DNA of 40,424 nucleotides from NCBI GenBank assembly GCA_000934665.2, contig JYFJ02003535.1:1-40424 (forward strand), read 5' to 3'. Within the stretch, counting starts at the first letter, position 1. Every line of letters starts with the position of its first letter. The translations under genes were made by a program, and so were the position numbers. The notes beneath the pieces are model-generated. The model saw only the letters and a program-made list of their open reading frames with translations. It did not search any database and was not told where the DNA came from. The DNA comes from Catajapyx aquilonaris. Taxonomy: Eukaryota. This document shows, piece by piece, positions 3,393 through 35,213 of the stretch.

Positions 3393-3402
3393 TGTTCTTG
3401 TA

Positions 3403-3755
3403 ATAATAATAATAATAATAATTGTGGGTAATGATTTCACCCCTTACGGGGTATATCGCATGAACCTTTATTTTATTTTCAATTTTTTTTCTTTAAACTT
3501 CCACTCCGGTGCAAGGAATCAATGAATTTGGGTAAGGATAGGGATTTTTCGGGGAGGGGACACGGGTGCAGGGGCAATGTCGTTAAATAGGTCATGTGCA
3601 GTCCCCCAGGAGGTTAGGTTGCCAGACACCTCCTCGGTGCAGGTCAGAGACCCTCCTGACGCAGGTGAAAGGAAGTTCCCCAGGCGGGGATCGAACCTGG
3701 TGCCTTTCACTCAGCAAGCCGAGACGTTATACCATCTTGGCCACCACACCTCCCC
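3403..3755 (-). mobile_element. tRNA-derived SINE, copy 1
   Basis: Minus strand begins ggggaggtgtggtggccaagatgg (A box) ... ggttcgatcc (B box); 3504-3755 aligns by eye with 11382-11621; (TAA)n tail at 3401-3422; flanked by tgttcttgta direct repeats. Confidence 0.8.
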
Positions 3756-4095: not shown

Positions 4096-4103
4096 TATCG
4101 ATA
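4096..4103. promoter_or_regulatory. DRE motif (TATCGATA) upstream of DDX19 copy 1
   Basis: Exact TATCGATA about 260 bp before the ATG at 4354; the same motif precedes the other two WGLLE exons. Confidence 0.55.
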
Positions 4104-4353
4104 AAGCTTCAATCCGTTATTGTCATAGCCGTTATTATTAACCTTAGCCGCTATCTGAGCCCATGCAACAGCTCGGGCTGAGTTTTATAAAATCGCGTAG
4201 CTGGCGAGTCATTGTTCTTTTCGGTTGGCCTCTTCCTCTGAAGTTCTGTCTGTTCGGGCGGGCGGTGGAAGAGGTGCGGCTGAACCATATTGTCTTGTGT
4301 TCCATTCGCCAGCTCGGGGATTCTTCGTCGACAGTGCATCGGCTGCAGCGACG

Positions 4354-7300
4354 ATGACGATGAGTGAGACGCGTGGGTGGGGACTACTGGAGGTAGGGTA
4401 ACGGCATGACTATATGGGGATGCATTCTTTTTTTCTTTTTTCTTCTTTTTTCCCATGGCGTAGGGGCCTAGTCCTTGCACTGCATGAGGGCATGGAATGC
4501 TCACTGGCGGTGACATTGGGGACATTCAAGGTCATCCAAATTGTAAATTGGGTTAGTGTTTTGGATCACCTTGTATAGGAAATAGGGGAGTGTACAGGGA
4601 GGAGTCAGCTCTGTTCCTAGTTGACTCGGCCTTTGAGCTCCTTACCTCCCTGGCAATGAGGCCTCACACTGATTTTAACATCGCAATGATAACGGTGTAT
4701 CAACAGTGCAAAAAGAACTGTCCCAGTCATCCTGACGTGTGGGCTGGCTGCTCGACACACACCATGTAAGTTACATGGTGTGTGTCGAGCGGGCAGCACA
4801 CACATCAAGATGACTGGGACAATTCTTTTTGAACTGATGATACATGGCCACCTTGGGGGTGACAAGAGCGAGCTGAATGTTGCAGAATTTCTATCAGGTA
4901 GAAACGACTGTCAGTGTAAGTGGATACCAACAGCAGATGGAATGGGTTTCCATACTTGGCTCAGTTATTAGACACCAAGGTCGTCCCAATAATGTGGGGG
5001 AAGGTGGTGGCAAATTCACACAGGGTGACCGAACAAGCATATCAACATCTCCCAGACCTTCCCCAACTGGGGATGGTGATCAGCTCCTGTCTTGCCAATG
5101 GTTGATTTTACCGGTTTCACCAAATCCCACTGTGTTCATCGGGGTTGTCTTGGTATTTCCCCCCCTCCGTAGTGCCTAACCCTGGACAAACCAGGACACC
5201 TACAGTTCAGGAGATGTGGTGTACTGTACACAATGAGATGTTACCACATGTTGTCTGCCATTGTTGTCCCATATCTGTAGCGTGTATCAATATGTAGTAC
5301 TTGAGAGGCTTAGAAGGCGACCAGCGCCAAGTAGTAAGTGGCAACCAGACAGTATTGCTGGTGTCCTTCGAACATCTCAACCTGGTTATTGCTCAGTGAA
5401 TGAACCCTTTTGACCAATTGATGACAACTCCATTTGAGAATCATCCTCAGGTATTGGTGAAGGGCAGCAGACTAAATAGAACAGTAGTATGCAGCCACTG
5501 GCAAGCATTTCAGGTGACCCAACATCAGGAGGGTCAAAGTAGACACCGTTCATGTTGGGGCTTTGGGTAGCTGGGAACCTGCTAATGATCAACTCCTGAG
5601 AAAATTATGCAGATGGGCTTACAATAAACTGTTTAAAAGCTATGCATAAGTGATGCCCTGAGATGTTATGTACTGTTCCATACATTGAGCCTATCACGCA
5701 CATATTATAGTCGGACAGTCACATAGCCTTAGTTTGTTGCTTGGGCTTCTTCCAGCTCAATCATGAAATGAATGAAAAAAAAAAAATGCAGGACATAACA
5801 GCAGAAATTTGTATCAGAGTGAAGCAGTTATTATGCTAATGATATTGTTCTACTACTTGTAGGGTCTGTTGGATATTACCAAAGATGGTGCTGGTAATGC
5901 CAGTCCAAACAACGAGGAGGATCCCAAAGGGGACCTGGAAACGCAGTATCTCCTGAGAAAGATCATCAGGAAGGGGTTGATTGAGAACAAGAATGACGTG
6001 GAGATTCAGAGACGAAATCCCAATTCACCTCTCTACTCTATAAAGACATTTGAGGCGCTCAATCTGTAAGTTGAAGTTAGAGGAAGAATATGGAAGAATT
6101 TTGTCACTGTTGAAATCACTTTTATAATTTGTGATTTCTGTTTATTTTGTGAAGGCCTGCAAACCTGCTGAAGGGTCTGTATGATATGGGATATGATTCA
6201 CCATCCAAGATTCAGGAAACTGCCCTGCCGACCTTGATGGCTTATCCGTAAGTCAACACGTGCTTTACCAATGTTAACTTAGCTCTCAAGACTTGAATTT
6301 GATTAGGTAGTAAAATGATTGGGCGTTAATTTGTAGATCATCTGGAGTCTGTTAATTGCTGGATGATGATGGTGAATTTGACAAGTAGTGGAGCTAAAAA
6401 TCCTAGTAAATTAATTGATAGATAGTGAAAGAGAAACCTGCATTTTAGTTTACTTTTGACAACTTTTTGCAGCCTACTAACAGGGAGTCATTACTGGATT
6501 AGTCCAGCAGAAAACTAAAATCTATGTGGGCCTTGTAAACCCAACTCATCCTGGATTAACCTCAGACTAGCTTTGTTGTGTGTCTTGAGCCCATGCCAAT
6601 GCTATTATTGCGACCAGCGTCAGGTCTTGTCATAAATTAATGTTTTTGTGGTGTACAGTTTGGTACAATATTCCATAATGGTTTGTGCTCCTTCAGGCCC
6701 CAAAACATGATTGCCCAGTCTCAGTCTGGCACAGGGAAGACTGCTGCTTTCGTTCTGGCAATGCTGAGTCGAGTGGATCCTGACAAGAAGTACCCTCAGG
6801 TAAGGAATGATTGGGAAAGACATGGCATATTGCGCTACCTCCCTTGTATGAAATATTTTTTGTTCCTTAACTTTCAGTCCCTTTGCTTGTCCCCAACCTA
6901 TGAACTTGCACTCCAAACAGCAGCTGTCACCAAGAAAATGGCCAAGTATTGCCGAGACTTACAGATTAAGTTGGCTGTTCGAGGGGAGAACAGTACGTTG
7001 TTTCTAATTTCTTAGAGGTCATCATCAGTACATACATTATTAGACCCTCTGCCTGAGCAGTAATTTCAAAGACCGTAAGAGCCAGTTGGCCTTTCTTCTC
7101 TTGACTTCTTCCCCATCAACTAACCAAACAAACAAAAAGGCCATCTACTTGATTGGTTGAGACATATTTTCCAGGTGATGTGACAGTTATTTGCTATGCT
7201 AGCACAGACAACAATTCGGTGACAAATCTTTACGCAAATTGCCAGCAACAAATACATACATGGTGTTCCAAGTATATGGGTACTTTTAGTTAGAGGAAAT

Positions 7301-10300
7301 GTTGCTTGAAACTAATTTTTTTGAAGCTCATTGGGCCCTGATCCAGGTCCCCTATTCTACAGGGTAGTCACGAATTTGTTTGCCAAAATGATATGGGTGG
7401 TATGGGGGTGAGTATGATAAACGCATGGCATGGGTCAGAAAGGCCGTTGATGCTACATCTAGGAGTGTCGACCTTTGACATCGACGATAACCATCCTGAC
7501 AAGTATGGAAACCCCTGTACATGCCTGCATTGCTGGTTGCCTGTTCGAGGCCCTTGCACTCCTACACCATTGCCTGACCCTGGCAACCAGCGATGCAGGG
7601 ATGCACGGGGTATCCATACTTGTCAGGATGCACTTCGTTGACGGCCTTTCAAGCCCATGCCATGCTTCGTCTTCCATGCCCACCTGCTACCACCCGTATA
7701 TCATTTTGGTAGGTATGAATTTGTGACCACCCTGTACAACAAGTGCTACATTCGACCACCTGATATATAGTAAAGAGATCTCTGGATCGGGGCATAACAA
7801 GCTACACAAAAATAACTACTTTGGATGATATTAGTAATAACTAATAACAACCCACGAACTTGTACAGTACCCTGCATTAATGGCCATGCACAGACATCGC
7901 CACCTGTCCAAGAACGAAATTAGGCGCCGGTGGACTGCGTCCAAAATACTTGGACAGCTCAAGATATCGCGGTTGATTCAAACGCTTGCTACAAAGATGG
8001 ATCACAGCGGATCACAGATGTATCTGTGGGATGAATATTATAAGGCCATTGCGATTCCCATCAATGTATTGAGGTTGTGAACCAGTTATTACACGTACCA
8101 CGTGAATGCCTGTTAATTCACCGCGATGTCTTGAGCAGCCTTGAGCGGACTCGTGAGAAGCCTTGAGCTGTCCCAAGCATTTTGGACGCAACCAACTTAA
8201 TCTACTTCCGCTCGTTCCCGCCAGATGGCGGTGTCTGTGCATGGCCATTAATGCAGGGTACTGTAACACCATATATAAGAATAATACTGTATGCCTTCGG
8301 ACCAATGCACCTATGACAAATGTGCCTGTAATGTGATGAACTTTTGTATGGTTAGCTGCATTGGCCCCAGCTCAGGTTGAGTCAAAATGGCAGCATCTGG
8401 AAAGCAACTGCCACATTAAATGTAGGGTAATATAATTATGTGCTGCTGATGACCATGATATCTATTCAGTTTCGAAATCCTTTCTAATGATTGATTTCTC
8501 TGATAAAGTGGCTGCAGGGGAAAATATTGAGGAGCAGGTTATTATTGGCACCCCTGGAAAAGTTCTGGATTGGTGTCTGAAGTACGGAGTCCTTGACTTG
8601 AAACGCCTTGAAGTGTTTGTTTTGGATGAAGCTGACATCATGATCAGTCAGCAGGGGCACCAGGACCAGAGCATGCGCATCCACAAGTAAGTTGACACGG
8701 CAGTATTATTGTGCCCCAATTTTGTCCTAACTGACTGTTAGTTAATTCACCAGTTTCTGTATGTACATCATAGAAAAATTAATATTCCTCTCAGAGTGAG
8801 GAAAGCCTAGCTTGTTAGTGATGTCAAAGGTGGAAAGATGTTAATTTTTCCATGATGTGTAAAGAACAGATTTTTAGATTCCAAAAACCCTTCGAAAAGG
8901 TAGGCATTTAGTTCCTGAAAACAACTAAAATAGGCTCATAAATAGGCAGTAACAATCAATCAGGTTTTAACTTCTTTTCATTCTATACAGTAGTATTACA
9001 GCCTACTCTTGGCAGCACAATAACACACTAGCAGTTGCTGGTTCTATATTTTCGGCGGTTAGTTGGTGATGCCTGTCTGACAACACATCATTATATGCAG
9101 AAAACTACATTTCGACCTCACACAAAGTAACTGGATTGTACGTGAAAAGTGATGAAAAGTTAATCCGACATACCTACAACTTCTTTGCCCATCACAGGTT
9201 GAAGTGGAAGCAAAGCATTGAACGGAAAACCCACAGAACTCTCACAAATCTTACAGAACGATGTCAAAAAGGTGGAGATATGCGCTAATAAGCCACTTAG
9301 GTTCCAATGCCCTGAATAAGCAATTTTAGGTTGTACTGTTTTAAAGCTACGACTTTTGAGGTCCTTGTGTTATGAAACATACGAGGGCTAGTCGGAAAAT
9401 AAGTTTCGCGATGCTTCAGTTTCGATGCCATGCGATGGACAGAGTAAAAACGAGCATGAGCAGATACATTGATCCTTCCTCTACTTTACAGTACAGGTAG
9501 GTGCCTTCTTGCAGCTTATACGCAGGTGCGGCAGCTGTTGGACGACCCATATGCCCACCCATATGCCTCCAGGAAAAGTCATGCCAGACAGCGAGTGTTG
9601 GTCACATGGACTAAGACAGAAGTGAGGGCAGATGTTCGCTACCAGTGTTCGACATTTGACATACGACATTCATCACTGGCTAGTGGAGTGTATGGTCTGG
9701 AGATGTTGTGTCTGAGCAAATGGTGCGGCAATATGGTGCCAGCAATTTTAGAATAAGGTCGCAAGTGTAAAGGACAACCAGAGACATGAACTACCGGCCA
9801 CAGCAATTACCGACAGTGTATGCAGTGTGTCCTAACTTGTGCCTTAGTCCATGTGACCAACACTCTGTCTGGCATGACATTTCATGGAGGAATGTGGGCG
9901 GGCACGCTCTGCTGGCCACTGGGTCTCGTCCAACGGCTGCCGCTCCGGCGCATTAGTTGCAAGTAGGCGCCTACCCAGCCTATAAAGTAGAGGAAGGAGC
10001 AACGTACCTGCCCTTGCTCCTCTTTACCCTGTCCATCGCATGGTGTCAAAACTGTAGCATCGCGAAACTTATTTTCCAACTAGCGTTCGTATATTTATTC
10101 TGGTTCCGGTGTTCTGCCTATACAGAATTAAAGAGTAGGCGAAAACCTAAAAATATGTTCTTTACTTATTGCATGGTGCATGAAGTCAGCTCCTTGAAAT
10201 GCTTGATCACGTTACCTCATGTGTGGTATCACTTATGAGGAGTTCCTTACCATCTTTCTGCAGGACCCTGCCTGACACATGCCAAAGGATGCTGTTCTCA

Positions 10301-12145
10301 GCTACGTATGATGAGGAGATAATGGAATTTGCCGATGCCATAATTAAGCAGACCCCCTTGATCCTCCGCCTGAAGCGAGAGGAGGAGTGCTTGACCAACA
10401 TCAAGCAGTTGTATGTGGCCTGCCCTACACCTGATGAGAAATACCGTGCTATAGCCAACATTTATGGGGTGGTAACTATTGGTCAGGCTCTGATCTTCTG
10501 CCGCACACGTAGAACAGCTGCGTGGTTGGCAGCCAAGATGAGTATTGATGGTCATGCTGTGGCGCTGCTGACCGGAGAGCTTACCACTGAGCAGAGGGCA
10601 GCTGTGATAGAACGCTATAGGGAAGGGTTGGAGAAAGTACTCATCACCACCAATGTCCTGTCTCGAGGTGTGTGTATTTTTGAGTTCTTCCTGGTTGGAA
10701 AGTGGGTAGCAATAAATGAGTTTAACATTTGTTTGCGATGCAGTACAAACTTCAATAATTGATTAAGTAATTGATAATTTTAATGCCTTATTTTTAATAG
10801 TACATATTGAGTGTGGTGCATTTGTGTCACATTAACCTATAGGTTTAATGTCATTTCAAAAATATAGTCATTTATTTTTGAAATGAAATTAAACCTTACT
10901 TTTAAATTTGTGGGATTATAGTATTTGTCATATGGTTTTAATTGACCTATTGGTAATCATTTGAAATGTAATTTTTTGAGAAAACCTTACTTCTTCATAT
11001 CTTAGTGTACAAAAAGTAGCTTTTTTTTTTTACCATTACTGCATGGTGATATTGATTTTTATTTGCGCAGGAATTGACGTTGAGCAGACCACCTTGGTGG
11101 TGAACTACGATCTGCCCGTTGATAAAATAGGAAGAGCCAGCTGTGAGACCTACTTACATCGCATAGGTCGCACCGGAAGGTTCGGAAAGGCGGGACTTGC
11201 CATCAACCTGGTGGAGGATGACCATTCCATAAATGTGCTCAGGCAGATCGAGAATCACTTTGGTTAGTTATAACTGATTTGTTTAAATTTGTTAAAATTT
11301 ATTTTACCCCATGATAGAGAACAATGCCCATATTGTGCAGACCACCATCAGTTTTCTGTGTTCAATTTGATCTTTAGTAGTCTCTGGTGCAAGGAATCAA
11401 GGACGTAGGGTAGGGATAAGGATTTTTGGGGAGGGGCCAAGGGTGCAACTGCAATGTCGGTACACTGATGGTCATGTGCAGTCCCCCAGGAGCTTAGGTT
11501 GCCTGACACCTCCAAGCCGCGGGTCAGAGGCCCTCCTGATGCAGGCGAAAGGGAAATCCCAGGCAGGGTTCGAACCCAGGACCTTCCGCTCAGTAAGCCG
11601 AGCTGGTCACCATGCCTCCCCGTAGTTATAACTTATTATTACAGGTTAAAAAAAGTGCAGTCAAGTTTATGTAAAAATTTGTGGAGTCTGGAGCAGGGGT
11701 TTTCCAAGTGGGCCATTTCAAAGACCTTCTAGGTCTAGTGGGGCTGTGAATGTATCAAAATTGCAATTTTTTATTGGAGTTGACTAGCAAATGGCAGTAT
11801 GCATATGGAATTAAGTGGGCTTGCAACCTTGGAGGCCATGCCATGAATAACTTAGTATGCTTCCTATAGGACTTAGGGATGGGAGTGCACCTGCGCAATG
11901 AGGAAAAAGTCAGCTGGACACTCTGTTTCCTGATGCTACCCTCGTCCATGTTTTCTGCAAGGCACTTCCTGAACTGAAAGTCTGGGAACTGCTACGTTAG
12001 TAGTAACTAGCAGTGCGACGAAAATTCCACCCATAGTACAGTATTGTTGCTACTGTTCTTCTTCTTTCTCTTTGCAGGCCGGAAAATTGTCAAACTGGAC
12101 AGTGACAATGTGGATGAACTGGAAAAGCTCTTCCAGGATTACTAA
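4354..12145 (+). CDS. DDX19: DDX19/Dbp5 DEAD-box RNA helicase, tandem copy 1 (about 464 aa; exons 4354-4392, 5863-6065, 6155-6247, 6697-6799, 6878-6992, 8509-8686, 10264-10667, 11071-11262, 12078-12145)
   Basis: Exons sum to 1395 nt in frame with GT-AG sites; Q motif [55 protein letters not shown]19-specific NPNSPLYS and GHQDQS. Exon 1 ([13 protein letters not shown]) inferred from phase and similarity to the other WGLLE exons; start could be 4360. Confidence 0.9.
4696..4844. repeat. Near-perfect 149-bp palindrome (MITE-like) in intron 1 of DDX19 copy 1
   Basis: Arms symmetric about 4770; perfect core gctcgacacacaccatgtaa-g-ttacatggtgtgtgtcgagc. Confidence 0.9.
7360..7734. mobile_element. 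Tc1/mariner-type MITE in intron 5 of DDX19 copy 1
   Basis: TA|cagggtagtcacgaattt ... aatttgtgaccaccctg|TA; imperfect inverted arms of about 90 bp; TA target duplication. Confidence 0.85.
7865..8263. mobile_element. Tc1/mariner(pogo)-type MITE in intron 5 of DDX19 copy 1
   Basis: TA|cagtaccctgcattaatggccatgcacagaca ... tgtctgtgcatggccattaatgcagggtactg|TA; perfect terminal inverted repeat of about 30 bp plus inner inverted segments. Confidence 0.9.
9382..10089. mobile_element. Mariner-like non-autonomous element with long inverted arms in intron 6 of DDX19 copy 1
   Basis: TA|cgagggctagtcggaaaataagtttcgcgatgct ... agcatcgcgaaacttattttccaactagcgttcg|TA; inverted similarity continues inward (about 9580-9620 vs 9840-9880). 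Confidence 0.85.
11382..11621 (-). mobile_element. tRNA-derived SINE, copy 2 (intron 8 of DDX19 copy 1)
   Basis: Collinear with 3504-3755 (ggtgcaaggaatcaa ... ggtcatgtgcagtcccccaggag ... ccctcctga ... tcgaacc); B box present, A-box region partly deleted; gtagt on both flanks. Confidence 0.8.
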
Positions 12146-13601
12146 TTGTTTTTCCATGTCTCTGGTTGAAGAGGACTTGTATACGGAGATGTTGTCACAA
12201 GGGATGTATATCATGTATTTAAGTTTTTTCAAGTTGCAAGCTGCAATTGCTATTGTAAAGGGCCTTATTAATAATACCTTGTTGCCAGATCTTTTCAAAG
12301 ATCGGCGTATTTAGATGATTGAGGCCAAAACGTCAGCAAGGTTGATCCTCTGATTCTCCAGACAGTACCACTGACACTGACAAGTGAGTGCTGAAGATTT
12401 TTTTAATTTTTTATTTTTCCTGCCCCAAAATGATGATAATGCTTAGAAGTTACTTATGATACATTGGAGACATTTTGCCCTCGACTTTTTGTTAGCGTAT
12501 AAACTCAGCTTGTAACTGACAAGTGTATATGTGTAAAGATAAGGTAGACCTACTGTTGAGGTCAGAAAGTCTCATATGTGGCAGGTGATTTAGCCCTTTT
12601 TTCAAGTCCCAGAAAGTAGTAGTGTCATAATGACATCAGTATATGCATTGCTGGCCTCTTTTTTTTTTTTTTTCAAATCTTAAGTGTTTTAAGATGATTG
12701 ATTGTGGAAATGGCAGCAAGTTGGGTGCCATGTTCTCCAGAGAGTCTCCCATGTGTGTACGATTTTCTAAAACTCTTTCAGTTTCAATAACACTTGTATG
12801 TTCTGTTTTGCCATATGTTTCACAACTATTCAAGATGCTTTCCTAATTGCGGATATTTTTCACATCATTGTAAGTCCCATTTTGATACGTTCTTTTTTGT
12901 TTGCGCTTTTGTACCATACTTGCAATATGTAGGTAGGTCACAATGCCATGATTTTTTGAAAACTCTTAATTTTAAACATGCTATTGAGCAACCTGTTGTA
13001 TTTTTGTGCAAACTCGACCTGTTGTGCACGTGACTTCCACAAGTACACTGGGGGTCAGGGAAGTGCAGGGGGAAGGTCGGGAATGTGACTCCTGCAAGTA
13101 ATCATTATGTATTTGTAGCTGTGTTTTGTAGTGTTCAAGTGTCTCGTCTTTGTTGACTGCCAAGTGATTAATGTGATTCATTTATACTAAACATTTGAAT
13201 AACTGGAAGAAATGTACCATGCAAGTGTATGTTTGAAATCCAAAACATACTTTCTGTGTCACATTTGTCATATTCTGTTACTAAAAAGCACTTAGTTGAG
13301 ACAAGGACAATAAAAGCTACGTTTTCTACCTTCATCAGCATTTTGATTCTAGTACTCCATGCAGAAGTATAGTGATCTACTCAACAGTCAATGTGCATTG
13401 TGCAGTGTTTTTTTTCCCTAGTGAGAGTGTGAAATGGAAATTGTGGCCCTGTATGTGCGTGTACGTAATGATTGACAAGTTTCAAAAACTGCATACACAT
13501 TACATCCTATTTTCTACTTTAAATCCGAAACTCACTGTGCTGGTAAAAGCATCAAGGTTTTTACAATTGTAACCATTGCAGTTAAGCGAAAAACCAATAT
13601 T

Positions 13602-13622
13602 TTATTATTATTATTATTATTA

Positions 13623-13689
<67 letters not shown>
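13602..13689. repeat. (TTA)n microsatellite
   Basis: Direct reading; one interruption; source of the poly-Ile pseudo-ORF. Confidence 0.95.
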
Positions 13690-13751
13690 GATGACATTGC
13701 ATGGGGGGGGGATATCGATTCGATGATTTTGGTTTTGTTGGCGATATTGCT

Positions 13752-13759
13752 TATCGATA
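13752..13759. promoter_or_regulatory. DRE motif upstream of the orphan WGLLE exon
   Basis: Exact TATCGATA 240 bp before the ATG at 13992, in a CpG-rich patch. Confidence 0.55.
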
Positions 13760-13991
13760 TGCAGCCACCGCCGCCGATTCGACGGATTGGATATTTTCGA
13801 GTAGCGGCTACGTTATTGCAGGGCCCAGTGGGAGCAGGTGGTGCCATCTGGAAAGCTAGAAGGTGCCAAGGTGGGCGCCATTGCTCGAGAAGGCTGAACA
13901 TCGTCGGTACAGCCTGCAGTGCACGCCGTTTTCCTTTGTCTCCAAACCTCCTTCGGGGACAACAAGACGTGTCCAGCGGTGCTGCTTCGTG

Positions 13992-14042
13992 ATGGCTGGA
14001 CTCCCTAAGATGCTGCCCTCACGTAGGTGGGGCTTGCTGGAG
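13992..14042 (+). CDS. Additional DDX19-type first coding exon ([17 protein letters not shown]): alternative exon 1 of copy 2 or relic of a lost copy
   Basis: 51 nt from ATG to GAG|GTAAGG; same length, phase and [10 protein letters not shown] ending as 18140-18190. Confidence 0.65.
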
Positions 14043-16517
14043 GTAAGGCCGTAAAAGCAGCATGCAGACCCTGCAGATAGCTAGGATCGGGCATGGGCTA
14101 CAACAAGTGGGTGTTACAGGGTGTCCCACTCGCCCCCAAAAAAGCGCCGAAATTTTATAAGCAACCTGTTAAAAAAATAATTATTATTAAGGTTTTATCA
14201 TGGCGGATTTTTTAAGCCTTGGGTAGTCTGGCCATGTCATGTGCATGCCAGGATTTGTCCAGTGCCAGGTTGCAGTGTCAGTAACACCATATTGTGCTCG
14301 CTGGTTTAAACTCACCAACAGACCAGTTGCTCGAACTACAGTACCTTGGTGTGTGGTTTTATATTTCACATAAACTGAGGGTGTGTGAAGGTCAAATGAA
14401 GGGAATTATAGCTGCAGTGTTGGGATATCCTATGCTATGTGTTGCACAGGCCTAGGTGCATGGGAGTCAGTTGTGCTACCATAGCCGCTGGGGGTTGCAT
14501 AAATATTCTGGTGCCAGTTATGTAGGTAAGATTGTGTACCAATGTGTGCAAATAAGTTAAACAACCAGCTAATTGTTCTATAGGCTGATAAAAATTTGCA
14601 GACAGGAAGCTATCCAGTATTGGGACTTAACTGCTTACCGTATTACTAGCACAAATGTTTAGGGTGTAACTCATTAATGGATGTCAAAATGAAGAGGCTG
14701 CAATCAAAACGTGTTTAATAATTCCATTCGGGTGCACTTTTGACTGATCAAGAAAAACGTAGGGCTGCAATGGAAGGGAAAGGGGTTGGACATTCCATTG
14801 AAAACATGCCATATTTGCCTAATTGTCTGACCCGGTCTGACCCTTAGCTAAGGCAGAGGGAATGATCATGTCAAAATAAATGATTAATTCACCTGCATTG
14901 ACTCTCATTGGAACTGTTTACATTGCAATGAAATGTTGAATGGGGCCATAAGGATACTATAATATGACCTGTACATGCTGATCACTTGTAAGTTCATCAT
15001 GTGAGTTTATTATTCTCTGGGTTTTTTGTGGGGAAATGATTCATAAGAAATTGCACTTGAGTAAAAGGGTGCAAGTAAAGCAATATAGAAATAGGAATCG
15101 AGTTACACACGTTGTGTGTGGTACTCGCCATTTCAAGCCAGATGATATGCAAGACTGTGTCAAAACATGTACTCATAGCCTATCAGACACTCATTCTTTG
15201 TGTACAATGCAGGTGCTGGTACTTACATAACATTCCTTGGTCATTGCAAGTGAGGCATGTCCTGCAGATAGTGGCACTCACAGAGTACTTAGATGATTGA
15301 CCATCCACAACAATGTTGGCTGAAAGTACATGCAGATTTTTTCAGGAGACAATACATGCTCCAAACATCAGACACTACAAGATGTTTTGCTTCTGTATTT
15401 TTGCACCACTTGAAATGGTTGCAAATCTACTTGCGTAAAGGGTTCTATGTCATACAGGTCTGCCTCCAGCCATTTCCGCGATTCTTGAACGCTGGATTGC
15501 AACTTGGAACTTGGAACCCTGCTGCAACAATTCAAGATTAAATTTTTTGATCACCTGGGATTTAGAGCCTAACTATTACCACCTCTCCATGGACAGGAAG
15601 AAATGGCTTATTGCAAAGCGAGAAATATAATGTGTTCCTGGGAACTATCACATGAGGTAGATGTTATAGTGATTTATAGAGGGATGAATGAGCAATAGTC
15701 AACATCTGGCCAGGTAAAGTTGTAGGCTGCGCACCATAACTATTGTCTGCTACAGGGAAGGTTGGTCCATAATAATCTAAGTAAATGGGTGAGGAAATTA
15801 AGTGCAATGTAATCCTGACTTAAGAAATGATATGACTAGTTCCAAGTAGTATTTTTTTTTACAGATGCAGAAGGGTTGGAATCATCATGCTGGATGGTGT
15901 TATCTATAAATGTTTGAATCAATATGGACAGTGGGGGTAGCCACTCAATAATAATAATCCCAAGAATTGTTCATTATGTTAAACAATAATTATTATCTTT
16001 GGACTTGACCTAGAGCTCACACGTACTGAGCCATAGGATGCCACTTTGGCTTCAGATAACTTAATGGAAGTTTTGAAATTGTGAGCTTCCAATTTTAATA
16101 ATATCCTAAGGATGAAGCTGGAATAGCAGCCTCAGATTTTGTTAGGGTTAGTGCTGCTTTTTTTTCCAAAATTTGGAAGAAGCAAACATAACCCTCAAGT
16201 ATTTAAATTCGGATGTCATTTTCACTTGACGTATTCCTGACTATCCTGAGTACTATTTAATGCAATATGACATGTTTCCACCTTTCCTAAAAACCATTAG
16301 CTTACATTTATCAGGATTACTTTTTAATGATGTGTTCATGAGAAAATTGGTTATGAGGGTTGCCTGCCTGCTTTGGACAAATAGGTAATGCACTGTAGGG
16401 TGCTTATACGAATGCAGTGATTATGTTCAAAAATCAAGAGAAGATTACTAGTTGCCATGTCATTTTTCTCCCTCAGTTGCAAACTCCCATATTGTGGATT
16501 CCAACACAGGAAATGTA

Positions 16518-16639
16518 GCTATCAAGGGGTAAATCACTCATGAAGTCCGTTGTATGGTATAAGGTGCCAAGTCCGACCAAGTCTGACAAGTCCGGCTTTT
16601 TACAACGCTCAACTGCCGAGTGATTTACCCCTTGGTAGC
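16518..16639. mobile_element. Small TA-flanked MITE
   Basis: TA|gctatcaaggggtaaatcactc ... gagtgatttaccccttggtagc|TA (22-bp inverted repeat, one mismatch). Confidence 0.75.
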
Positions 16640-17422
16640 TATGGTGTTTACCTGTCAGATACAATTCTATGATTTATGTGCTTTATATGGTAGTATGATG
16701 CTGGTGTAGGCTGAGCGAATGTGTTTCATTCTCTGTAATGGTATATTTGCCTGCTGTACACCATTTCCCACTATGTGTTCAGGAGTTGTACTGCCCATGT
16801 GCATTAAACTTATTTTGCGGCTGACAGCATGAAATCTGGAAGGAGTGTGTAAACTGTTACATGAATTGCACTTTGGTGATCTTGCTATCTTCAACTAATC
16901 TATGATGGCAGGGATTAACTTGCATCTCCTTCAATGCTGACTACCCTTAGAGGAAAATGTACTGTTTTGTGTATTCACGGCATACTGCGTTACTGCCTAA
17001 TCCCATAAGTGCACCGCTCATAGGACTTCTCCACCTAATAAATTCAACCAGATAACCTTAAGCATTTTACTAGCAAAGAAGCGATAAATGGGCATCATGG
17101 ATGATGATCATCTCCATTTGCGTTTTTTGTTCCAAGTGCCAGGAGGTGAGTGTGCAGCATGGTTTCACAAAGTAGCTCACATTTATGCAGCTGAAGGGTG
17201 CCCACCCACATGCCCTGTAAGCAACCTGAAGGGGAAGGACAGGAGAAAGGAAAAAAGACAAGAGGTTGTGCTGCGCGGTATTTGGTTCTTCTGCGACCAA
17301 CTAAAATTTGGCCTGTTCAGCAATACCAATTTGATGCTGGCAAAGTCTGCAACATTTCAGCCAGTATGTATGCCAGTATCTGGCTACAATTCAAACAATC
17401 AACTGCCCATTGTGCATCTCTG

Positions 17423-17546
17423 CCGTCCCAAGGTAAAACGCCCTAACTGCAAAACTATAGTAAGGGTGAAAAAAAGGGCTTGTACACGACTTTATATTCA
17501 CCCTTACTAGAGTTTTGCAGTTAGGGTGTTTTTACCCTTGGGACGG
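17423..17546. repeat. Inverted repeat/hairpin (MITE-like)
   Basis: ccgtcccaaggtaaaacgccctaactgcaaaactatagtaagggtgaa ... ttcacccttactagagttttgcagttagggtgtttttacccttgggacgg. Confidence 0.85.
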
Positions 17547-17951
17547 AAAATCTGGCAACCTCCTTGCTCTTACTGATTTTGGTTTCATGTCACTTTGTGC
17601 CTTGTCATAATTTATCGCCATTCTGCACATAACCAGTACTGCATTATTCCCTAACTATACCCCGTCAATTAAATCTAATTATTAGTATTAATTGGCAGGC
17701 GCTCTCGACGGCATTATTTTTTCCAGCGGGAAATAGCCATTCATTAATAGCCGTTATCGCGATAACCATTATCAATTAATCCGGCCACGTGGCCTTGACA
17801 AATTATAACTGCTGCTGAAGTGGGCACGAATATTTATCTCGTGGTGTAATAATTAGCACTTTGCGTAATTCTAAAGATGTTGAGAACTACCTGTAGTGTA
17901 CTCGAGTGTACTGCACATAACATGGAAAACGACAGTCCTGAAATTCGAAAA

Positions 17952-17959
17952 TATCGATA
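17952..17959. promoter_or_regulatory. DRE motif upstream of DDX19 copy 2
   Basis: Exact TATCGATA about 190 bp before the ATG at 18140; related tatcgattcgata at 17976. Confidence 0.55.
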
Positions 17960-18139
17960 TATCTACACCGAGGCGTATCGATTCGATACTGTTAAAAGTA
18001 GCTGCTACAAATCGGCCTTCCTTTCCTGTGATGGCTTCCCGGCTTCCCTTCCTTCCTTCCTTTTGACAATTGGGCTGTATGAGATCCAGAATCTGTTGTG
18101 ATCCTCGAGTGATCCTCAGCATTTTGAGCAGTGGGTTTG

Positions 18140-21100
18140 ATGGAGGGTCCCGCCCCACATCTTCCGTCCCGTCGATGGGGACTTTTGGAGGTATGGCTTA
18201 TTCTGGGTGGGCAGATATAGAGACTGGTTGACTCAATTTTGTTCTTCTGTGCTCTGGTTGGAGAAAACATTGCATTCTTCAAACCAGCATGGCTGGAATC
18301 CCCTTGCTAAGTTCTGTCAGTCAACACCTACTGTATTCAGTACTATAAATCCCAAATATTATTACGGTGGACACTCGTATACAGGATAATATAAAATGCT
18401 ATTCCAATTGCTACGGCTAATGCTGCCTACTATTCAAATGGTTGCTTTAAACCACATATATTTAGTGGTCATCCAAGGTATGGGCTGTTCATATTAGGTT
18501 GAATGGGCCTGCAAGGGGTTGTGGCCTGCAAAAATCTATTGATGTTCAATGCCAACAGACATTAGAAATTTCAATCTTTGGATAGGTGAATCAGTTTTTG
18601 GCTAATACAGTGACACCTTTATTCATCACTTCCATCAGGGAGCTGATTTAAAAAAAAAAAAAAAAAAAAACAACTAAGACTGCAGGAATACTACAAATGT
18701 ATGGGCCTATGCAAAATGGGAAATGAGTTACCACTTCTTGAATATACAGGGGCTGGACAAAATAACGGAGCCCCTTGCAAAAAGCGGATGAGTTTTCTCC
18801 TCCATTGTTCTCGAAAACTGGAAAGGTTACAGAGATGGGCTTTGACTTATTTTGAAGCTCTGTCGATGTACATTTACAGACATGAAGATATATGGCACAA
18901 AAATCACAAGAGGAGGGGGAGAAACAAAAGACTAACGACGACTCCTCCCAGACCCCGTATGAACAGAGTGTCCCACACTTTTCATTTGAAAATGAAAATA
19001 GTTGCAGATATGAACTTCAGTGCATTTTGGAGGTCTATCGATGACTTCGTTTGGTATAGAGATGAACCAAAATTACAGGCAGGCTGCTTTTTGCAGGGGG
19101 GGCCTGTATTTACTACACAAAAAGAGTTCTAAAAGGCTTGTTTAGGCTTCATTGCAGGTTGACGCTTTGGCTGGTGTTGGTGACGTGCCAGTAGGCCATG
19201 CCAAAGTGCCAGTGGGCCATGCTGAAGTGCCAGTGGGCCATGCTGAAGCACCCTCAGCACAGGCAGAGCCAGATGATAATGACAAAGACCTAGATGTGGC
19301 TGAGAAGTCTCTCCTACAGAAGATTCTAAGGAAGGGATTAGTTGAGAACAAAAATGACTTGGAGATCCAACGGCGAAACCCAAACTCGCCTCTGCATTCT
19401 GTGAAGTCATTTGAGGCACTCAACCTGTAAGTTCAGATGATTCCTATTTGGATTCCCCTTATTCTACAATAATTTTCATTATTGCCGATTTATTGCAATT
19501 TTTTTAAAGGCCTCCCAACCTACTGAAGGGAGTTTTCAAGATGGGATTTGACTTTCCATCCAAAATTCAAGAAACTGCGCTGCCCACCTTGATGGCTCAT
19601 CCGTAAGTTCATATAGTGTACTACTGCTGGTTAATGTTTGAGAGTCAATAATTTTAACTTTGGTCGCATTATTAATACAGGTTGAGAATCCTTTTTCTGA
19701 AATTCCAACTGTATAAAGGAATGCTGTGTAGTAATGGTGTGAACTGGAATTATTTTGTACAAATTAGTAATAATATTTTAATGGTTCATGTTTCCGTAGC
19801 CCTGTTGACATGATTGCCCAGTCTCAGTCTGGAACTGGGAAGACTGCCGCATTTGTGCTGGCTATGCTGAGCCGGGTAGATGGTACAAAGAATTACCCAC
19901 AGGTAAGAAGTACTGTAGTTTATTGTAAGCAGACATCATGGTGCCAACCTTGTCTTAAACTCTCGTTATGCCCCAACTTCCAGGCTCTGTGTCTTGCACC
20001 AACATACGAGTTGGCTGTCCAAATTGGAGATGTCACCACCAGGATGGGTCGGTTTTGTCCGGATATTAAGATCAAATTGGCTGTTCGTGGAGAGGATGGT
20101 ATGTAGTCATTTCCCTTATAAGTAAATGTTGATTAATCTTGTGGAACCTGGTTATCACAATAGTGTAGTCTAAAGGCCTTTTTTGCACCATGCAATTAAT
20201 GTGTGCGCAACTTTTTTGCGGGCAAGAAGCACAGTATGCAAACTGAAAGCATTGCCTCTACTTCATCTGGAATTTTGTGGCTACTTCTGTTCTAAACTAG
20301 TTTCAAATGACTCGAATAATTTGAGTGTACAATATTACACCACATTGCTGGCACAATTATTGTGCCAGCCATGTGGTGTAATATTGTACACTATGTCTGG
20401 ACAAGAAGTTTCATAAAGCTATCTGTTTAATGCTTGCTATTTTTTTTGTTGATAAAGTGGGAAGAACGGAGAAGATTGAAGAGCAGATAGTGATTGGTAC
20501 TCCTGGGAAAGTTCTCGATTGGTCAACCAAGTTTAAGATTCTTGATATGAGCCAGCTGGCAGTGTTCGTCCTGGATGAAGCTGATGTCATGATTGGAATG
20601 CAGGGGCATCAGGATCAAAGCATCCGGATCCACAAGTAAGTTTTCATACTCAACACAACTACAGTCATGAAGTCGACAGAACAGTAAAGAAACATGTAAT
20701 TATTTCATCTGGCATCCCAGATGTTGATCCCTAGTAATGCAAGTGTGAATACTCTGCAACTTTCCATCCAGTAACTACAACTTTTTAAGCCTTTAATACT
20801 TGCCATGAGGAAATATAAAAATGTGCAAAAAATATTCTTTTAAAATATTAGACAAAATCACATGAGCAAAGGATCAAGGCAATATGCCTTTTAGCCCAGA
20901 GTCGAGGAAATTTTTAGCAATTTTTCACCGCATGTGTTGTGAGAAAATTAAAGCTCATTTGAATGCAGATTTTTAGATGGCATATTTGAATTTTCGTTGG
21001 GGGTTTTCAACATCTCATGCATCTGTCACACAAAAACCTGCTGTTGGATGTTTAATCTGCATGATACTGATCTTCCTTTTCCTTCAGATTGGTTCCCGAG

Positions 21101-21900
21101 ACATGCCAGGTGATGCTGTTCTCGGCAACCTATGATCAGGATGTTATGGACTTTGCGGAGATCATTATCCCCGAACACCCGATTATTCTCCGTCTAAAGA
21201 GAGAGGAAGAGTCGCTCTCAAACATCAAGCAGTTGTATGTCGACTGCGGGTCACCAGAGAGCAAATATCGTGCCATTGCAAACATATATGGGGTGGCCAC
21301 TATTGGCCAGGCCATGATCTTCTGCCACACCCGTAAAGCTGCTGCCTGGCTTGCCGCCAAACTTGCTACGGATGGCCATGCCGTGGGCATACTCAGCGGA
21401 GATCTAACCATTCAACAGAGGGTGGCCGTTCTAGAGCGCTTCCGGGACGGAATGGAAAAGGTGCTGATCACCACTAACGTGCTCTCCCGAGGTGTGTTTT
21501 CATAAGATGATATTGTTGTGAAAATGGGTAGTAATGAGTATAATGCTGTGTTCTGGACAGGCATTGACGTGGAGCAGGTCACCCTGGTGGTCAATTATGA
21601 CATGCCCGTGAATGTGAGTGGACGAGCCGATTGCGACACTTATCTGCATCGCATTGGACGGACAGGGCGTTTTGGCAAGGCAGGACTTGCCATTAACCTT
21701 GTGGATGGTAGCAAAACCATGGACATCGTAAGACAGATCGAAACCCACTTTGGTTAGTTGTTGTGCATAATGTGACACAGTTTTGCCATTTGAATGCATC
21801 TTAATATTCTAAATCCTTTTTAATACCTGCAGCCCGTAAGATCGTCAAACTAGATAGCGACAACCTAGACGAGCTGGAGCAACTCTTCCACGAGAACTAA
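18140..21900 (+). CDS. DDX19: DDX19/Dbp5 DEAD-box RNA helicase, tandem copy 2 (about 494 aa; exons 18140-18190, 19146-19426, 19510-19602, 19800-19902, 19984-20098, 20458-20635, 21088-21491, 21561-21752, 21833-21900)
   Basis: 1485 nt in frame, GT-AG introns at the same positions as the other copies; [48 protein letters not shown] intact; TAA at 21898-21900. Exon 1 [17 protein letters not shown] is inferred. Confidence 0.9.
18747..19106. mobile_element. Degenerate Tc1/mariner-type MITE in intron 1 of DDX19 copy 2
   Basis: TA|caggggctggacaaaataacggagccccttgcaaaaagc ... gctttttgcagggggggcctg|TA; right terminal repeat partly deleted. Confidence 0.5.
19185..19247 (+). repeat. In-frame 21-bp x3 coding tandem repeat ([21 protein letters not shown])
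   Basis: gtgccagtaggccatgccaaa gtgccagtgggccatgctgaa gtgccagtgggccatgctgaa in exon 2 of copy 2. Confidence 0.95.
20324..20392. repeat. 69-bp palindrome (34-bp arms, one mismatch) in intron 5 of DDX19 copy 2
   Basis: agtgtacaatattacaccacattgctggcacaat-t-attgtgccagccatgtggtgtaatattgtacact. Confidence 0.95.
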
Positions 21901-22995: not shown

Positions 22996-24745
22996 TTACT
23001 TATTGGAAAGAATCTGCGACTTTAAAACACTTTTCACTTCATTAATAACACGAGGATGTGAAAAGGCTTGGATGATCATGCGACAGAAATTGTTCTTATC
23101 ACAGTCAAGTTCTGCAGGTACTTCTTTGTAATTACTTGTACTTGGTAAATGCAACTTTTCTGGAATTGCACGTGTGTGATATTTTTCCCAGATTGTTTTA
23201 TATGGCACTGAGGCAAGGGGTAAAACATTCTTGTGAGTTCTGGCCACATCTTCCCATGACGTGGCGCCGCATTCCCTTTTCTGCCGTTTGGACTCAGGTT
23301 CTCCTCTGTCGTTCGGGGCATCCTGGAGTGTGTTCAGACAGGTCTTGACATATCCTTCAAGGACAGACGCTGGAATGTCTGGCAGGTCATTCTGAATTAT
23401 AAAGGGTACAGCCGTAACTACAAACCACCCATGAAACAACAAGCAGCGATTTAACTGAAGCACTCCCAGCGCCAGCCTTACCTCGGTGGGATTGAGCATG
23501 CTCTGAATGTCTCCTGGAATGACCCTGCTGAGGGAGCCAATTAACCACTTCACCAGAGCTTCACTCACACGAGCATCTTTGTCCTCGTCAAGCGGGACCC
23601 AGGTGTTGACGCTAATTGAGACTTCCAGGTGCTCCACGAAATGCCACCACTTGGGAGGAACGTACAGGACTTCCCCTGGCTCCAGATCCACCAGGACGCA
23701 CCTGCTGTTCATCAGGCCTGAACGTTACAATTAGTTGTCATACCTGCATGAAACACTTTGTAACATATACCTGCATCGCTTGGAAGGTGACATGTTGAAA
23801 ATCCTAAAGAACTATACACGCTTGATTCTTCATAGGGGATGCGGGTTGGACGCAACTGCTCAGATTCTTCTGGTGGAAAAAGCAACCATCGCTTCCTGGA
23901 ATACGAGATCTGTTAGGTTTATGACCAATCCCACAAATTTTTTCCCTACGTCTTGTAACATCCTCGGTGTAAAGTTCACCAACCTGCCAAGAAGTTGAGC
24001 CACAAGATTGCACCCATATTGATCGTAGTGACACGGAGTGTTGGCCCCTTTGCTTCCAATCCACATTGTTGAATTGCTGCCATCCAGCTCCGGAAAACCC
24101 AACGGACTCCAATCAACACTCTGAAAAGTTAAGAACTGTAGCGGATTTCTCAATGGTTAAGTAATCAAAAAGCTCTTACTTTCAGAAGACTGTCCTTCTC
24201 TTCAAACACCTTGTGCATGTACTTGTAATCAAAGTACGCCCAATTATCATCAGCGGACATGCCTGCAAACCTACTGGCTTTGTTCATGACAGCACCACCA
24301 GCCTGCCACGCCACGAAATCTGAGAATGTCAGATGTTCCTCGCTGCAACATCTCTCCCACTCAGGCGACTGAAAGTAATGAAACTTGAAGCTTTCGCCGA
24401 ATAATAACACATAATTGAGTGCAACCAAACGAGGATCGCAACTGTGTTTCTACGTATGGTAATCCAGTTTTGTTCTACAATCAGCAACTGCTGTGTGACA
24501 TAAACGGATCATGTCCTAGTTTTTAAAATGCATGTCCGTTGTAGTTATTATCATACCTTCCGACCCTGCATTCTTCCAACACGAAAGCACAATTTCTGGT
24601 CCTCAAATATTCTTGCCCAATCGTCCAATGCATAAGAAGCCAGAGCCCAGTCCTCGATAAGTCCACGGAAAACGGCTGGTTCACTATTACGCAGGACACC
24701 TTCACGCAGCAGCTGTGACAAAGGTCTGCCTGATTCTGCCATCAT
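22996..24745 (-). CDS. HSPBAP1: HSPB1-associated protein 1-like JmjC/cupin protein (about 423 aa; exons 24745-24557, 24368-24180, 24120-23984, 23895-23771, 23717-23482, 23391-22996)
   Basis: 1272 nt in frame with GT-AG sites; WAYFDYKY, STMWIGSKGANTPCHYDQYGCNLVAQ, GRKRWLLFPP, PTRIPYEESSVYS, PGEVLYVPPKWWHFVE and ARVSEAL match HSPBAP1; HxD...H metal triad intact; AATAAA on the minus strand at 22947-22952. Confidence 0.92.
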
Positions 24746-25269
24746 GTTCCGCTGTAAATTAATGATTTAAAACTTAAATTAATTAATAGTCAACCTGGTC
24801 AAACCATATTAATCCAATACACTACCAGTAATCCAGTTAGTATGTGCAGAACAAGTTCGTCCTATCTACAACCATTTCCCAGTGTACAATGCAATCAACT
24901 TATTCCTAATGGTGAGGGCAATTAATGTATAGCTCATTACACAATTGTAAATAAAAATTAGCATCAATTTTAAGCGATTTTAAGAAACAACCACATTTCC
25001 GCCATTCGCCGGATACAACTTGGCAACCCTGTGCGACTACCAACCGTATTTAAGTTTAATAGCATCTGTCATTATTTAAAAAAAATTAAATCCGGCTAAT
25101 TAATTGCAACGAGCACATTAGACAAAACCTCACTTTTAAAAACATTGATTAAAACCAGAGAGCCGGTCAGCACAGGTAGCAGGCAGCGGCGTTGCATGCC
25201 GTTGCGAAAAAGTCGGCATCGTTTTGTGCAAGTAAAGTACGCCGAGTTATTAAAAGTGCTTCTCTAAGT
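24746..25269. promoter_or_regulatory. Probable bidirectional promoter/5'UTR region shared by HSPBAP1 and DDX19 copy 3
   Basis: Divergent start codons (24745 and 25270) separated by only 524 bp. Confidence 0.6.
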
Positions 25270-27827
25270 ATGTCTGCATCTGTGGAGGACTGGGGTGCAT
25301 CGGCGGACGCGCAGGAGAAGAAGCTCACCGACCAGGTATAACAATGCAACAGCCACACTTAACAAAGAAAGTGTACGGTACTCCTCATAAGGTTCAAGTA
25401 CAGACCAATATTATTATTATTATTATTATTATTATTTGTAACAATTTTCAGGTTGGAAGTTTGGACCTGGACGGTGGGGCTGATGCTGCTGCGTCCGGTG
25501 GAGTCGATGAGAACGAGCATATTGATGTGGCGGAGCGATCGCTTCTCCAGAAGATCATCAGGAAAGGATTGGTCGAGAACAAGAATGACCTGGAGATCCA
25601 GAGGAAAAATCCAAACTCACCGCTGTATTCCGTCAAAACATTTGAAGCGCTCAATCTGTAAGTTGGAAGTTTAGACCAGTTGGTTTCAGTCACATTATTT
25701 TATTTAAATAAAATAAAATAAATTCTGCCATTAGGACACAGGGTTTAAAATAAAATAAAATAAGATAAATAATATACTCAATAAATAAATAAAATAAATA
25801 TAATGACTGAACAGATAAATAATGTAAATTAACATATAGCATGACTGGGTCCTTGTAGGGCCTTGGAGCATCTCGAGACTGGGTAAAGTTAGAGTTAATA
25901 AATAAATAAATAAATAAAATGAATATATTTTGTGCAGGCATGCAGACTTGCTCAAGGGTGTCAGTCTCATCATTTCTTTATTTTTTATTTTTAATCCTAC
26001 CATGCATGGTTTTAAATAAAATAAAATAAGTAAATAAATAAAAAAATAATAATGACTGAATAAATAAAATAAACAAATACAGTGTCTGAATAAATTTTAA
26101 AAATTAAAAAATAAAGTGTGTGAATAAATAAAATTAAGAAATAAAGTGTCTGAATAAATAAAATAAATAAACAAATAAAATAGCTGAAATAAATTAAATT
26201 AATGTATTTTTCCAGGCCTGCTGACTTGCTCAAGGGTGTCTATGGCATGGGATTCAATGCACCTTCCAAGATTCAGGAGACGGCTCTTCCTACCTTGATT
26301 GCAGATCCGTAAGGCATTCTTTGAGCACTTCTGGTTATTTAATATGAAGAGTAATATATTATAATTAACTGTTTCAGCCCACAGAATATGATTGCACAGT
26401 CTCAGTCTGGAACTGGAAAGACTGCTGCTTTTGTATTGGCGATGCTGAGCCGTGTGGATGGTACAAAGAAATACCCACAGGTAAGCAGGAAGATTCTTGC
26501 ATCCGGAATATGCTTATGATTTGCAATTTTCAGGCCCTGTGCTTGTCCCCAACATATGAACTGGCTGTCCAAACTTCAGAAGTTACTGTCAAGATGGCTC
26601 AGTTTTGTCCGGATATACGGATCAGATTAGCTGTTAGAGGACAGGAAGGTATGTAGCGTACTTGTTCCATACCATGTTACAGTTGAATAATGCGTGTCAA
26701 TTTTTTTTTTTAAATATTTCAAGTGGGTATTGGTGAAAAGATTGAGGAGCAAATTGTGATTGGTACTCCTGGGAAAGTGCTGGACTGGTCTTTGAAGTTT
26801 AAATCCCTGGACCTGAAGCGACTCAGTGTATTTGTTTTGGATGAAGCCGATGTCATGATTGCAACACAGGGACACCAGGATCAAAGCATCCGTATCCACA
26901 GGTCAGTGAACGTGGCTCCCATGTAAGAGTAACGTAAGGATGGCAGTTAATACTCCTCTATTCCCACCACAGGATGATTCCCAAGACATGCCAGATGATG
27001 CTCTTCTCGGCAACATATGATCAGGAAGTGATGGATTTTGCAGAGGCCATAATATCGAACCCATTGGTCCTCCGTCTAAAGCGAGAGGAAGAGTCGCTCT
27101 CCAACATCAAGCAGCTCTATGTGTATTGCCGTACACCAGAGAGCAAGTACAGAGCGATAGGTAACATTTATGGAGTAGCCACCATTGGACAGGCCATGAT
27201 ATTCTGCCACACACGAAAAACGGTAACCTGGCTTGCCTCCAAGCTTGCTGAAGACTCCCATGCAGTAGCCGTGCTCAGTGGAGAGCTGAGCATTGAGCAG
27301 AGGGTGGCTGTGCTGGAGCGCTTCAGGGAAGGAAAGGAGAAGGTGCTCATAACCACCAACGTCCTCTCCAGAGGTATAACCATTTGAAACATTCATAAAC
27401 GAGTTACATGCTGTTTTGATTCTGTCATGTGCCATTACAAACTATAAAGCAGCCTACTTTACGTATTTTGTCTTTTTTGTGGACAGGAATTGATGTGGAG
27501 CAGGTAACGCTGGTTGTAAATTTCGACCTACCAGTGGATCAGAGTGGCAGAGCAGACTGTGAGACGTACCTGCATCGCATAGGACGAACTGGAAGGTTCG
27601 GAAAGGCAGGGTTAGCCATAAACCTTGTTGATGGGAGCAAATCAATGAATATCATGAAGCAGATTGAGGACCACTTCGGTTAGTTATTGCTTTTATTTTG
27701 GGACGTCTGTAACAATGGCGTCATGTGCTAAATTAATCCTTCCTTCTCTTTCTCCACAGGTCGGAAAATTGTCAAGCTCGATACTGATAATATTGATGAA
27801 CTGGAAAAACTCTTTCAAGATTACTGA
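25270..27827 (+). CDS. DDX19: DDX19/Dbp5 DEAD-box RNA helicase, tandem copy 3, ancestral-like (473 aa; exons 25270-25335, 25452-25657, 26216-26308, 26378-26480, 26534-26648, 26724-26901, 26973-27373, 27487-27678, 27760-27827)
   Basis: 1422 nt in frame; N-terminus [18 protein letters not shown] resembles the usual animal DDX19 start; [57 protein letters not shown] at 27825-27827. Confidence 0.95.
25705..26200. repeat. (AAAT)n-rich low-complexity, internally duplicated intron segment
   Basis: Degenerate aaat/aaaat arrays; blocks at about 25742 and 26008 start similarly and both end in an exon-3-like acceptor. Confidence 0.85.
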
Positions 27828-35134: not shown

Positions 35135-35213
35135 GTGGTGTGATTTCAAAATTTCATGTTTCGATCCCATGAAAGTCATGGGATCGAAACATGAAATTTT
35201 GAAATCACACCAC
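35135..35213. repeat. Perfect 38-bp inverted repeat with 3-nt loop
   Basis: gtggtgtgatttcaaaatttcatgtttcgatcccatga-aag-tcatgggatcgaaacatgaaattttgaaatcacaccac. Confidence 0.97.

Follow-up and report, generated by a model that had tools for sequence, protein, structure and literature searches.

Introduction

Alternative first exons derived by duplication are a known kind of arrangement. At the UGT1A and clustered protocadherin loci, duplicated first exons, each with a promoter of its own, are spliced to shared downstream exons, and the first exons in between, having no acceptor, are skipped. Within the helicase family treated here, insect Dbp80, the DDX19 orthologue, offers a smaller version: in Cephus cinctus and Trachymyrmex septentrionalis a short alternative first exon that contains an ATG and has a separate upstream region is spliced, in phase 0, to the common exon 2, and the isoform pairs (P0154/P0155 in Cephus, P0159/P0161 in Trachymyrmex) are identical past the first-exon junction, at the same intron position as in the locus that we describe. 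That locus is a stretch of 40,424 bases from Catajapyx aquilonaris (contig JYFJ02003535.1; hereafter the window), in which three intact, old genes for DDX19/Dbp5-type DEAD-box helicases, here called copies 1, 2 and 3, stand in tandem, all on the plus strand. The window holds four first exons to these three gene bodies, and the extra one, the orphan exon, lies between copies 1 and 2. To judge from the sequence, the segment at 13.7–14.05 kb is a real DDX19-type promoter and first coding exon, kept by selection without a body of its own. Our preferred account, which we hold at about even confidence, is that it is maintained as a distal promoter and first exon of copy 2, and that it originated either by duplication of a 5′ end or by capture after a fourth gene had lost its body.

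The locus departs from each of these systems. UGT1A and the protocadherins have many units whose large first exons encode whole variable domains, whereas here there are two exons of 51 nucleotides (nt) with near-equal peptides. In insect Dbp80 the alternative exon (MRPYDLFE or MGLLRMRYNG) is unrelated to the canonical one (...VDWG...QE...), whereas the two exons here are paralogous and encode the same peptide; the insect isoforms, moreover, are annotated, while use of the exon in the present case is something we infer. With these differences, the alternative first exons of insect Dbp80 would provide a precedent in the family for a connection to copy 2. The orphan exon also resembles a duplicated (non-processed) pseudogene fragment in being a body-less piece of a paralogue in the spacer of a tandem array, but it carries no disabling change, shows silent-only substitutions in its conserved part, and retains promoter motifs and a CpG island.

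The protein segment concerned lies at the extreme N-terminus of the helicase. Structural work on DDX19 describes an N-terminal extension that includes an autoinhibitory helix (Asp55-Ser68) and is common to the testis-specific DDX25; the passages of that report that deal with the extension give no role for the extreme N-terminal motif (PMC2667716). Literature searches on tandem duplication of DDX19, and on alternative first exons that follow duplication, yielded nothing specific to this case.

Results

The orphan exon occupies 13992..14042 on the plus strand and comprises 17 codons (51 nt), with the start context gtgATGG and a phase-0 end. Its closest counterpart is copy 2 exon 1 (18140..18190, plus strand, donor GTATGG), likewise of 17 codons and 51 nt and in phase 0, and the last ten residues of the two exons are identical. 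For both exons, the coordinates, translations, length and phase proposed in an initial annotation of this DNA are as it had given them. The remaining first exons are that of copy 1 (4354-4392, plus strand), which was found by a six-frame search, ends in WGLLE like the orphan and copy 2 exons and has its own TATCGATA at 4096, and that of copy 3 (25270-25335, plus strand), which is of the canonical type. The orphan exon matches the first-exon layout of DDX19/Dbp5 genes, being short, initiated by ATG, and closed, at the conserved position of intron 1, by a phase-0 GT donor, and this layout is also that of the three full genes. Scored with a matrix derived from the 21 internal donors in copies 1-3, its donor, GAG/GTAAGG (14043..14048, plus strand), reaches 8.82 bits, the 99.1 percentile of plus-strand GT, and is the best of the four exon-1 donors (copy 2, 7.26; copy 1, 4.28; copy 3, 3.87 bits). 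No disabling mutation is present in the exon: the ATG, the 17 open codons and the donor are all intact. Left unspliced, the reading frame would meet a stop after 20 codons.

Over the last ten codons, where the initial annotation had pointed to common residues written in differing synonymous codons, the orphan exon and copy 2 exon 1 differ at nine nucleotides in seven codons, with no amino-acid change. When sets of nine random substitutions were simulated, 0 of 500,000 kept the peptide, from either starting sequence. The proportion of synonymous differences (pS) between the exons is 0.96, saturated like that of the gene bodies; the orphan exon therefore dates back to the gene duplications and is not a fresh copy. 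Its first seven codons vary freely (nonsynonymous divergence, dN, 0.84), yet both exons stay at 17 codons. Silent-only change of this kind in the last ten codons is not the pattern left by neutral substitution. This signature of constraint is, like the sequence features described above, a direct observation on the DNA, and a peptide kept despite silent change implies long selection on the orphan exon, in both lineages. Gene conversion was ruled out as a source of the common peptide: it would have homogenised the silent sites, and the reverse is observed.

Upstream of the orphan exon lies a putative promoter and 5′ leader (13700..13991, plus strand), which is G+C-rich and not depleted of CpG. 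It carries, all on the plus strand, TATCGATTCGAT at 13713..13724, repeated as an identical 12-mer at 17976 upstream of copy 2; TATCGATA at 13752..13759, 240 nt upstream of the orphan ATG; and the near-palindrome GTAGCGGCTAC at 13801..13811, with a counterpart, GTAGCTGCTAC, at 17998. Motifs had been reported earlier upstream of both exons, and exact searches of the window confirmed the paired sites: TATCGATTCGAT has no exact site other than those at 13713 and 17976 (0.05 sites expected when up to one mismatch is allowed), and GTAGCKGCTAC matches exactly at 13801 and 17998 only. The upstream region of copy 1 has just the GTAGCTG part of the near-palindrome, at 4197. With one mismatch allowed, GTAGCKGCTAC has four further plus-strand sites, which lie inside an unrelated tandem repeat at 61-287. 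The tandem repeat at 40-304 has a period of 72 bases and 97% identity between its copies, is rich in G+C, with a CpG observed/expected ratio of about 1.3, and contains GTAGCGGCTAG in each unit.

The TATCGATA motif is found exactly three times in the 40,424 bases (4096, 13752 and 17952), against an expectation of 0.32, and 0 of 100 shuffles reached three; its sites stand 258, 240 and 188 nt upstream of the WGLLE-type starts of copy 1, the orphan exon and copy 2, respectively. The proximal promoter motifs of copy 2 accordingly fall at 17952..18008 (plus strand; TATCGATA at 17952, followed by TATCGATTCGAT and GTAGCTGCTAC), and the comparator promoter and exon 1 of copy 1 at 4096..4392 (plus strand). 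Outside the shared motifs, the upstream regions of the three WGLLE-type exons do not align. Chance resemblance was ruled out by the counts of TATCGATA and TATCGATTCGAT together with the substitution simulation. TATCGATA is the sequence of the Drosophila DNA replication-related element, DRE (PMC2475616). The likeness of the locus to a Drosophila housekeeping promoter of the DRE/DREF type consists in TATCGATA at 13752-13759; the host is not an insect by the tree, and a DREF-like action is putative.

The leader between TATCGATA and the exon (13760-13991, 232 nt) contains no ATG, while shuffled versions average 3.2 and are ATG-free in 3.5% of cases. The CpG observed/expected ratio at the orphan exon is 1.0 over 13701-14000 and 1.46 over 13601-13900, compared with 0.53 for the whole window, and both flanks are CpG-depleted (0.38-0.39). 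Depletion is likewise lifted at the three bona fide gene promoters, and one would not expect CpGs to have survived in a silenced, methylated relic of this age. Microsatellites of the (ATT)n/(AAT)n type occur at 13593-13692, 25404-25437 and 3401-3422; the longest, of about 100 bases (13593-13692), lies directly 5′ of the orphan promoter, and another is found in the 116-base intron 1 of copy 3.

The orphan exon has no helicase body (DEAD, Helicase_C) of its own, and the next body is that of copy 2. When 16 reading frames that bear exons of copies 1-3 were used as tblastn queries, no DDX19 exon was found in 12.3-18.1 kb, where the search returned only minus-strand noise (E at least 0.087). A profile hidden Markov model (HMM) of 127 DDX19 proteins (124 fetched relatives and the three copies) was applied, with its filters switched off, to each stop-to-stop stretch of the six-frame translation. 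Its score did not exceed 2.2 bits in the same interval, whereas it detected each of the 24 body exons of copies 1-3. Both searches bear out the earlier statement that DDX19 exons 2-9 are not visible between 14043 and 18139. Among the 43 open reading frames of 12.8-18.3 kb, none reached the curated Pfam cut-off, and there were three weak matches (E 0.056-0.87); no Rfam match and no tRNA was found in the window. A blastn comparison of 12.3-18.3 kb with the rest of the window revealed no DNA similarity beyond the microsatellite and short palindromes. The 4.1-kb spacer thus appears to hold neither another gene nor a helicase relic or known RNA that the element could serve, which supports a connection to copy 2.

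Elsewhere in the window, a dispersed repeat of about 220 bases is present twice at 81% identity, upstream of copy 1 (3504-3723) and in copy 1 intron 8 (11382-11602); its translation suggests, as a guess, a tRNA-derived element resembling a short interspersed nuclear element, and ARAGORN found no tRNA. An imperfect palindrome at 33069-34329, about 1.3 kb long, matches its own reverse complement at 70%. Smaller palindromes are present at 4696-4844, 17423-17546, 20324-20392, 35135-35213 and 36072-36225, and the palindromes may be foldback elements or resemble miniature inverted-repeat transposable elements.

These results bear on the possibility that the element is dead, that is, that a single clean deletion recently removed exons 2-9 of a fourth paralogue and that the remnant, which gives no productive mRNA, has not yet decayed. 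Four first exons to three gene bodies, an array that grew by whole-gene tandem duplication, and a copy 2 equipped with its own exon 1 are all what such a history would leave. A dead remnant is harder to reconcile with the saturating silent distance from copy 2 exon 1 at zero amino-acid changes in ten codons and no indel, with an intact ATG and a donor that is the best of four, and with an element that is CpG-undepleted between depleted flanks and has its promoter motifs intact. An estimate over about 27 constrained sites puts neutral drift since the deletion at less than about 0.1 substitutions per site, so that the body would have to have been lost within about the last tenth of the lineage's history; no decayed trace of it was seen by tblastn or the profile HMM. 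We consider this explanation unlikely. The stump of a deleted fourth paralogue is, as an origin, compatible with present use as a distal first exon of copy 2.

A further explanation is that assembly error or rearrangement has misplaced the body belonging to the exon or collapsed it out of the sequence. Tandem arrays of paralogues are prone to misassembly, but the copies are only 69-83% identical at the DNA level, and in exons alone, so that they are too diverged to collapse, and there is no gap near the element, the sole N of the window being at 30052. We regard an artefact as very improbable.

The helicase array itself was modelled from six-frame translations anchored on the relative P0020, with frame-keeping GT-AG junctions chosen. 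Copy 1 (4354-12145, plus strand) encodes 465 amino acids, copy 2 (18140-21900, plus strand) 491 and copy 3 (25270-27827, plus strand) 474; each has nine coding exons and an intact frame, and intron positions are alike across the three. The proteins are 68-75% identical in pairs, synonymous divergence (dS) between the gene bodies is 1.57-1.75, which is saturated, and dN is 0.17-0.23; DNA-level likeness is restricted to the exons. Tandem duplications of whole genes have plainly built up the array. A quick maximum-likelihood tree of the 127 proteins places copies 1-3 and P0020 in a fully supported clade, in which copy 3 lies next to P0020 on a short branch (0.17), while copies 1 (0.91) and 2 (0.60) have long branches and are joined at 81% support, a grouping to be read with caution for long-branch effects. 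These branch lengths mark copy 3 as the conservative member of the array and the other two as duplicates that evolve fast: the WGLLE-type copies 1 and 2 evolve several times faster than copy 3, and pairwise dN/dS is still about 0.1.

Within copy 2, exons 3-9 occupy 19510..21900 (plus strand), with the Helicase_C domain match on exon 7, and the early part of exon 2 (19158-19260) encodes three tandem VPVGHA(K/E) units near the N-terminus, a unit not present in copies 1 and 3 or in the fetched relatives. Protein searches with copy 2 exons 2 and 7 gave best matches at 79% and 75% identity, respectively. An exact scan of metagenome contigs returned no match for a 30-mer of the orphan exon and likewise none for a control 32-mer of copy 2 exon 2, so that these contigs evidently do not include the species. 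Between copies 2 and 3 lies a minus-strand gene (22996-24766), head to head with copy 3, in which the reading frame 22996-23724 encodes a cupin/JmjC-type domain (Cupin_8, E 8e-9). Copy 3 and this neighbour appear to share one CpG-undepleted bidirectional promoter region (24800-25340).

The peptide conserved in the orphan exon may be related to a tryptophan motif of the family. A regular expression found such a motif in the first 30 residues of 97 of the 120 fetched full-length relatives, typically as DW[AG]xxxxxQEKxL; WG[LIVM][LIVM]E within the first 60 residues occurs in 0 of the 120, and the relative P0041 reads DWGLLAEEDEK. The orphan exon, with the same peptide as copy 2, has the W-G core, and the QEK half is missing from all three WGLLE-type exons. 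They are thus like the canonical DDX19/Dbp5 N-terminal exon in the tryptophan-glycine core near the N-terminus and differ from it in ending right after WGLLE, with no QEK part. The WGLLE exon looks like a shortened canonical exon whose donor is placed just after WGLLE, and this truncated type is so far known from this window alone, in copies 1 and 2 and the orphan exon.

Discussion

The initial annotation had proposed a live, duplicated promoter and exon 1 spliced to copy 2. The first part of that proposal gains support from the conserved peptide with its saturated silent sites and from the intact length, start, donor, motifs and CpG island; transcription, the splice partner and the origin of the element we infer. 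Transcription would start at roughly 13.76-13.9 kb, and the strong donor at 14042 would be joined to copy 2 exon 2 at 19158 (or 19146) over a putative 5.1-kb intron. This candidate intron (14043..19157, plus strand, 5,115 nt for the junction at 19158) spans the 4.1-kb spacer, in which no gene is recognisable, followed by the promoter, exon 1 and intron 1 of copy 2. The proposed common acceptor exon, copy 2 exon 2 (19158..19426, plus strand), begins in phase 0 at 19158, with another in-frame AG available at 19146; either start is compatible with the phase-0 donor at 14042, and copy 2 exon 1 fits equally. There is no in-frame ATG within copy 2 exon 2, and copy 2 therefore needs an upstream exon that supplies one. 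A first exon without an acceptor gets skipped by transcripts that start farther upstream, and copy 2 exon 1 would be skipped because it has no acceptor.

The predicted product is the copy 2 helicase with MAGLPKM replacing MEGPAPH before the common ten residues. Since the difference between the products would be confined to 6 of the first 7 residues, a gain is more likely to be regulatory than to lie in the protein, and the element would act as a second regulatory input for copy 2 and not encode a different protein. It may have arisen at about the time when copies 1 and 2 duplicated, either through a duplication confined to the 5′ end or from a fourth paralogue that lost exons 2-9.

Several observations weigh against the proposed connection to copy 2. 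Copy 2 already possesses its own promoter and exon 1, and the products would be distinguished by six residues only. The constraint test covers ten codons only and is subject to ascertainment, since the conserved peptide is what drew notice to the exon. The spacer contains five plus-strand AATAAA/ATTAAA hexamers, and its GC skew (+0.066) was compared with that of introns (+0.054 to +0.075) and of regions of uncertain status (+0.04), a comparison that does not discriminate. The acceptor of copy 2 exon 2 scores 1.95 bits in a crude matrix, the lowest of 24, and ranks 47th among the 299 AG dinucleotides between 14.07 and 19.3 kb, where decoys score higher (for example, 17699 at 11.3 bits). The argument that the exon simply joins the first good acceptor downstream was abandoned, as the crude matrix does not favour the acceptor of copy 2 exon 2.

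The same acceptor scores make it conceivable that the promoter and exon are live with a different output, in which exons in the spacer would give a chimeric or non-coding transcript, or the unspliced exon a 20-residue peptide, possibly modulating the proximal promoter of copy 2 by transcriptional interference. Several spacer AG sites outscore the copy 2 exon 2 acceptor, the motifs and CpG island that suggest a live promoter fit this reading equally well, and the unspliced frame does end after 20 codons. Selection on the ten-residue peptide, however, makes sense at the head of a helicase, where copies 1 and 2 have it; no phase-0 frame longer than 48 codons follows any of the 15 spacer acceptors with the highest scores, and the failure of all 43 reading frames at the Pfam cut-off also speaks against a coding partner in the spacer. 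We think such an output improbable, more so than a dead remnant.

Returning to the element as a distal start of copy 2, its history can be cast more specifically as promoter capture, a scenario that we put forward as tentative and on balance doubtful. After exons 2-9 of a fourth paralogue had been lost, the promoter and exon 1 left behind would have been rescued by splicing into the downstream paralogue, and the conserved ten residues would be a lineage-specific, shortened version of the near-universal DDX19 Trp motif, kept by selection whichever promoter is used. If this is true, a fast-evolving helicase copy gained a second, independently regulated start site.

If the exon is used, gene models at this locus should give copy 2 two promoters, and the locus would be a clean natural example of the 5′ end of a paralogue retained as the alternative start of its neighbour. 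In other respects, it is a detail of gene structure in an unsampled invertebrate lineage and not a new kind of system. For the family, the exon draws attention to selection on a short Trp motif at the N-terminus of DDX19-type helicases.

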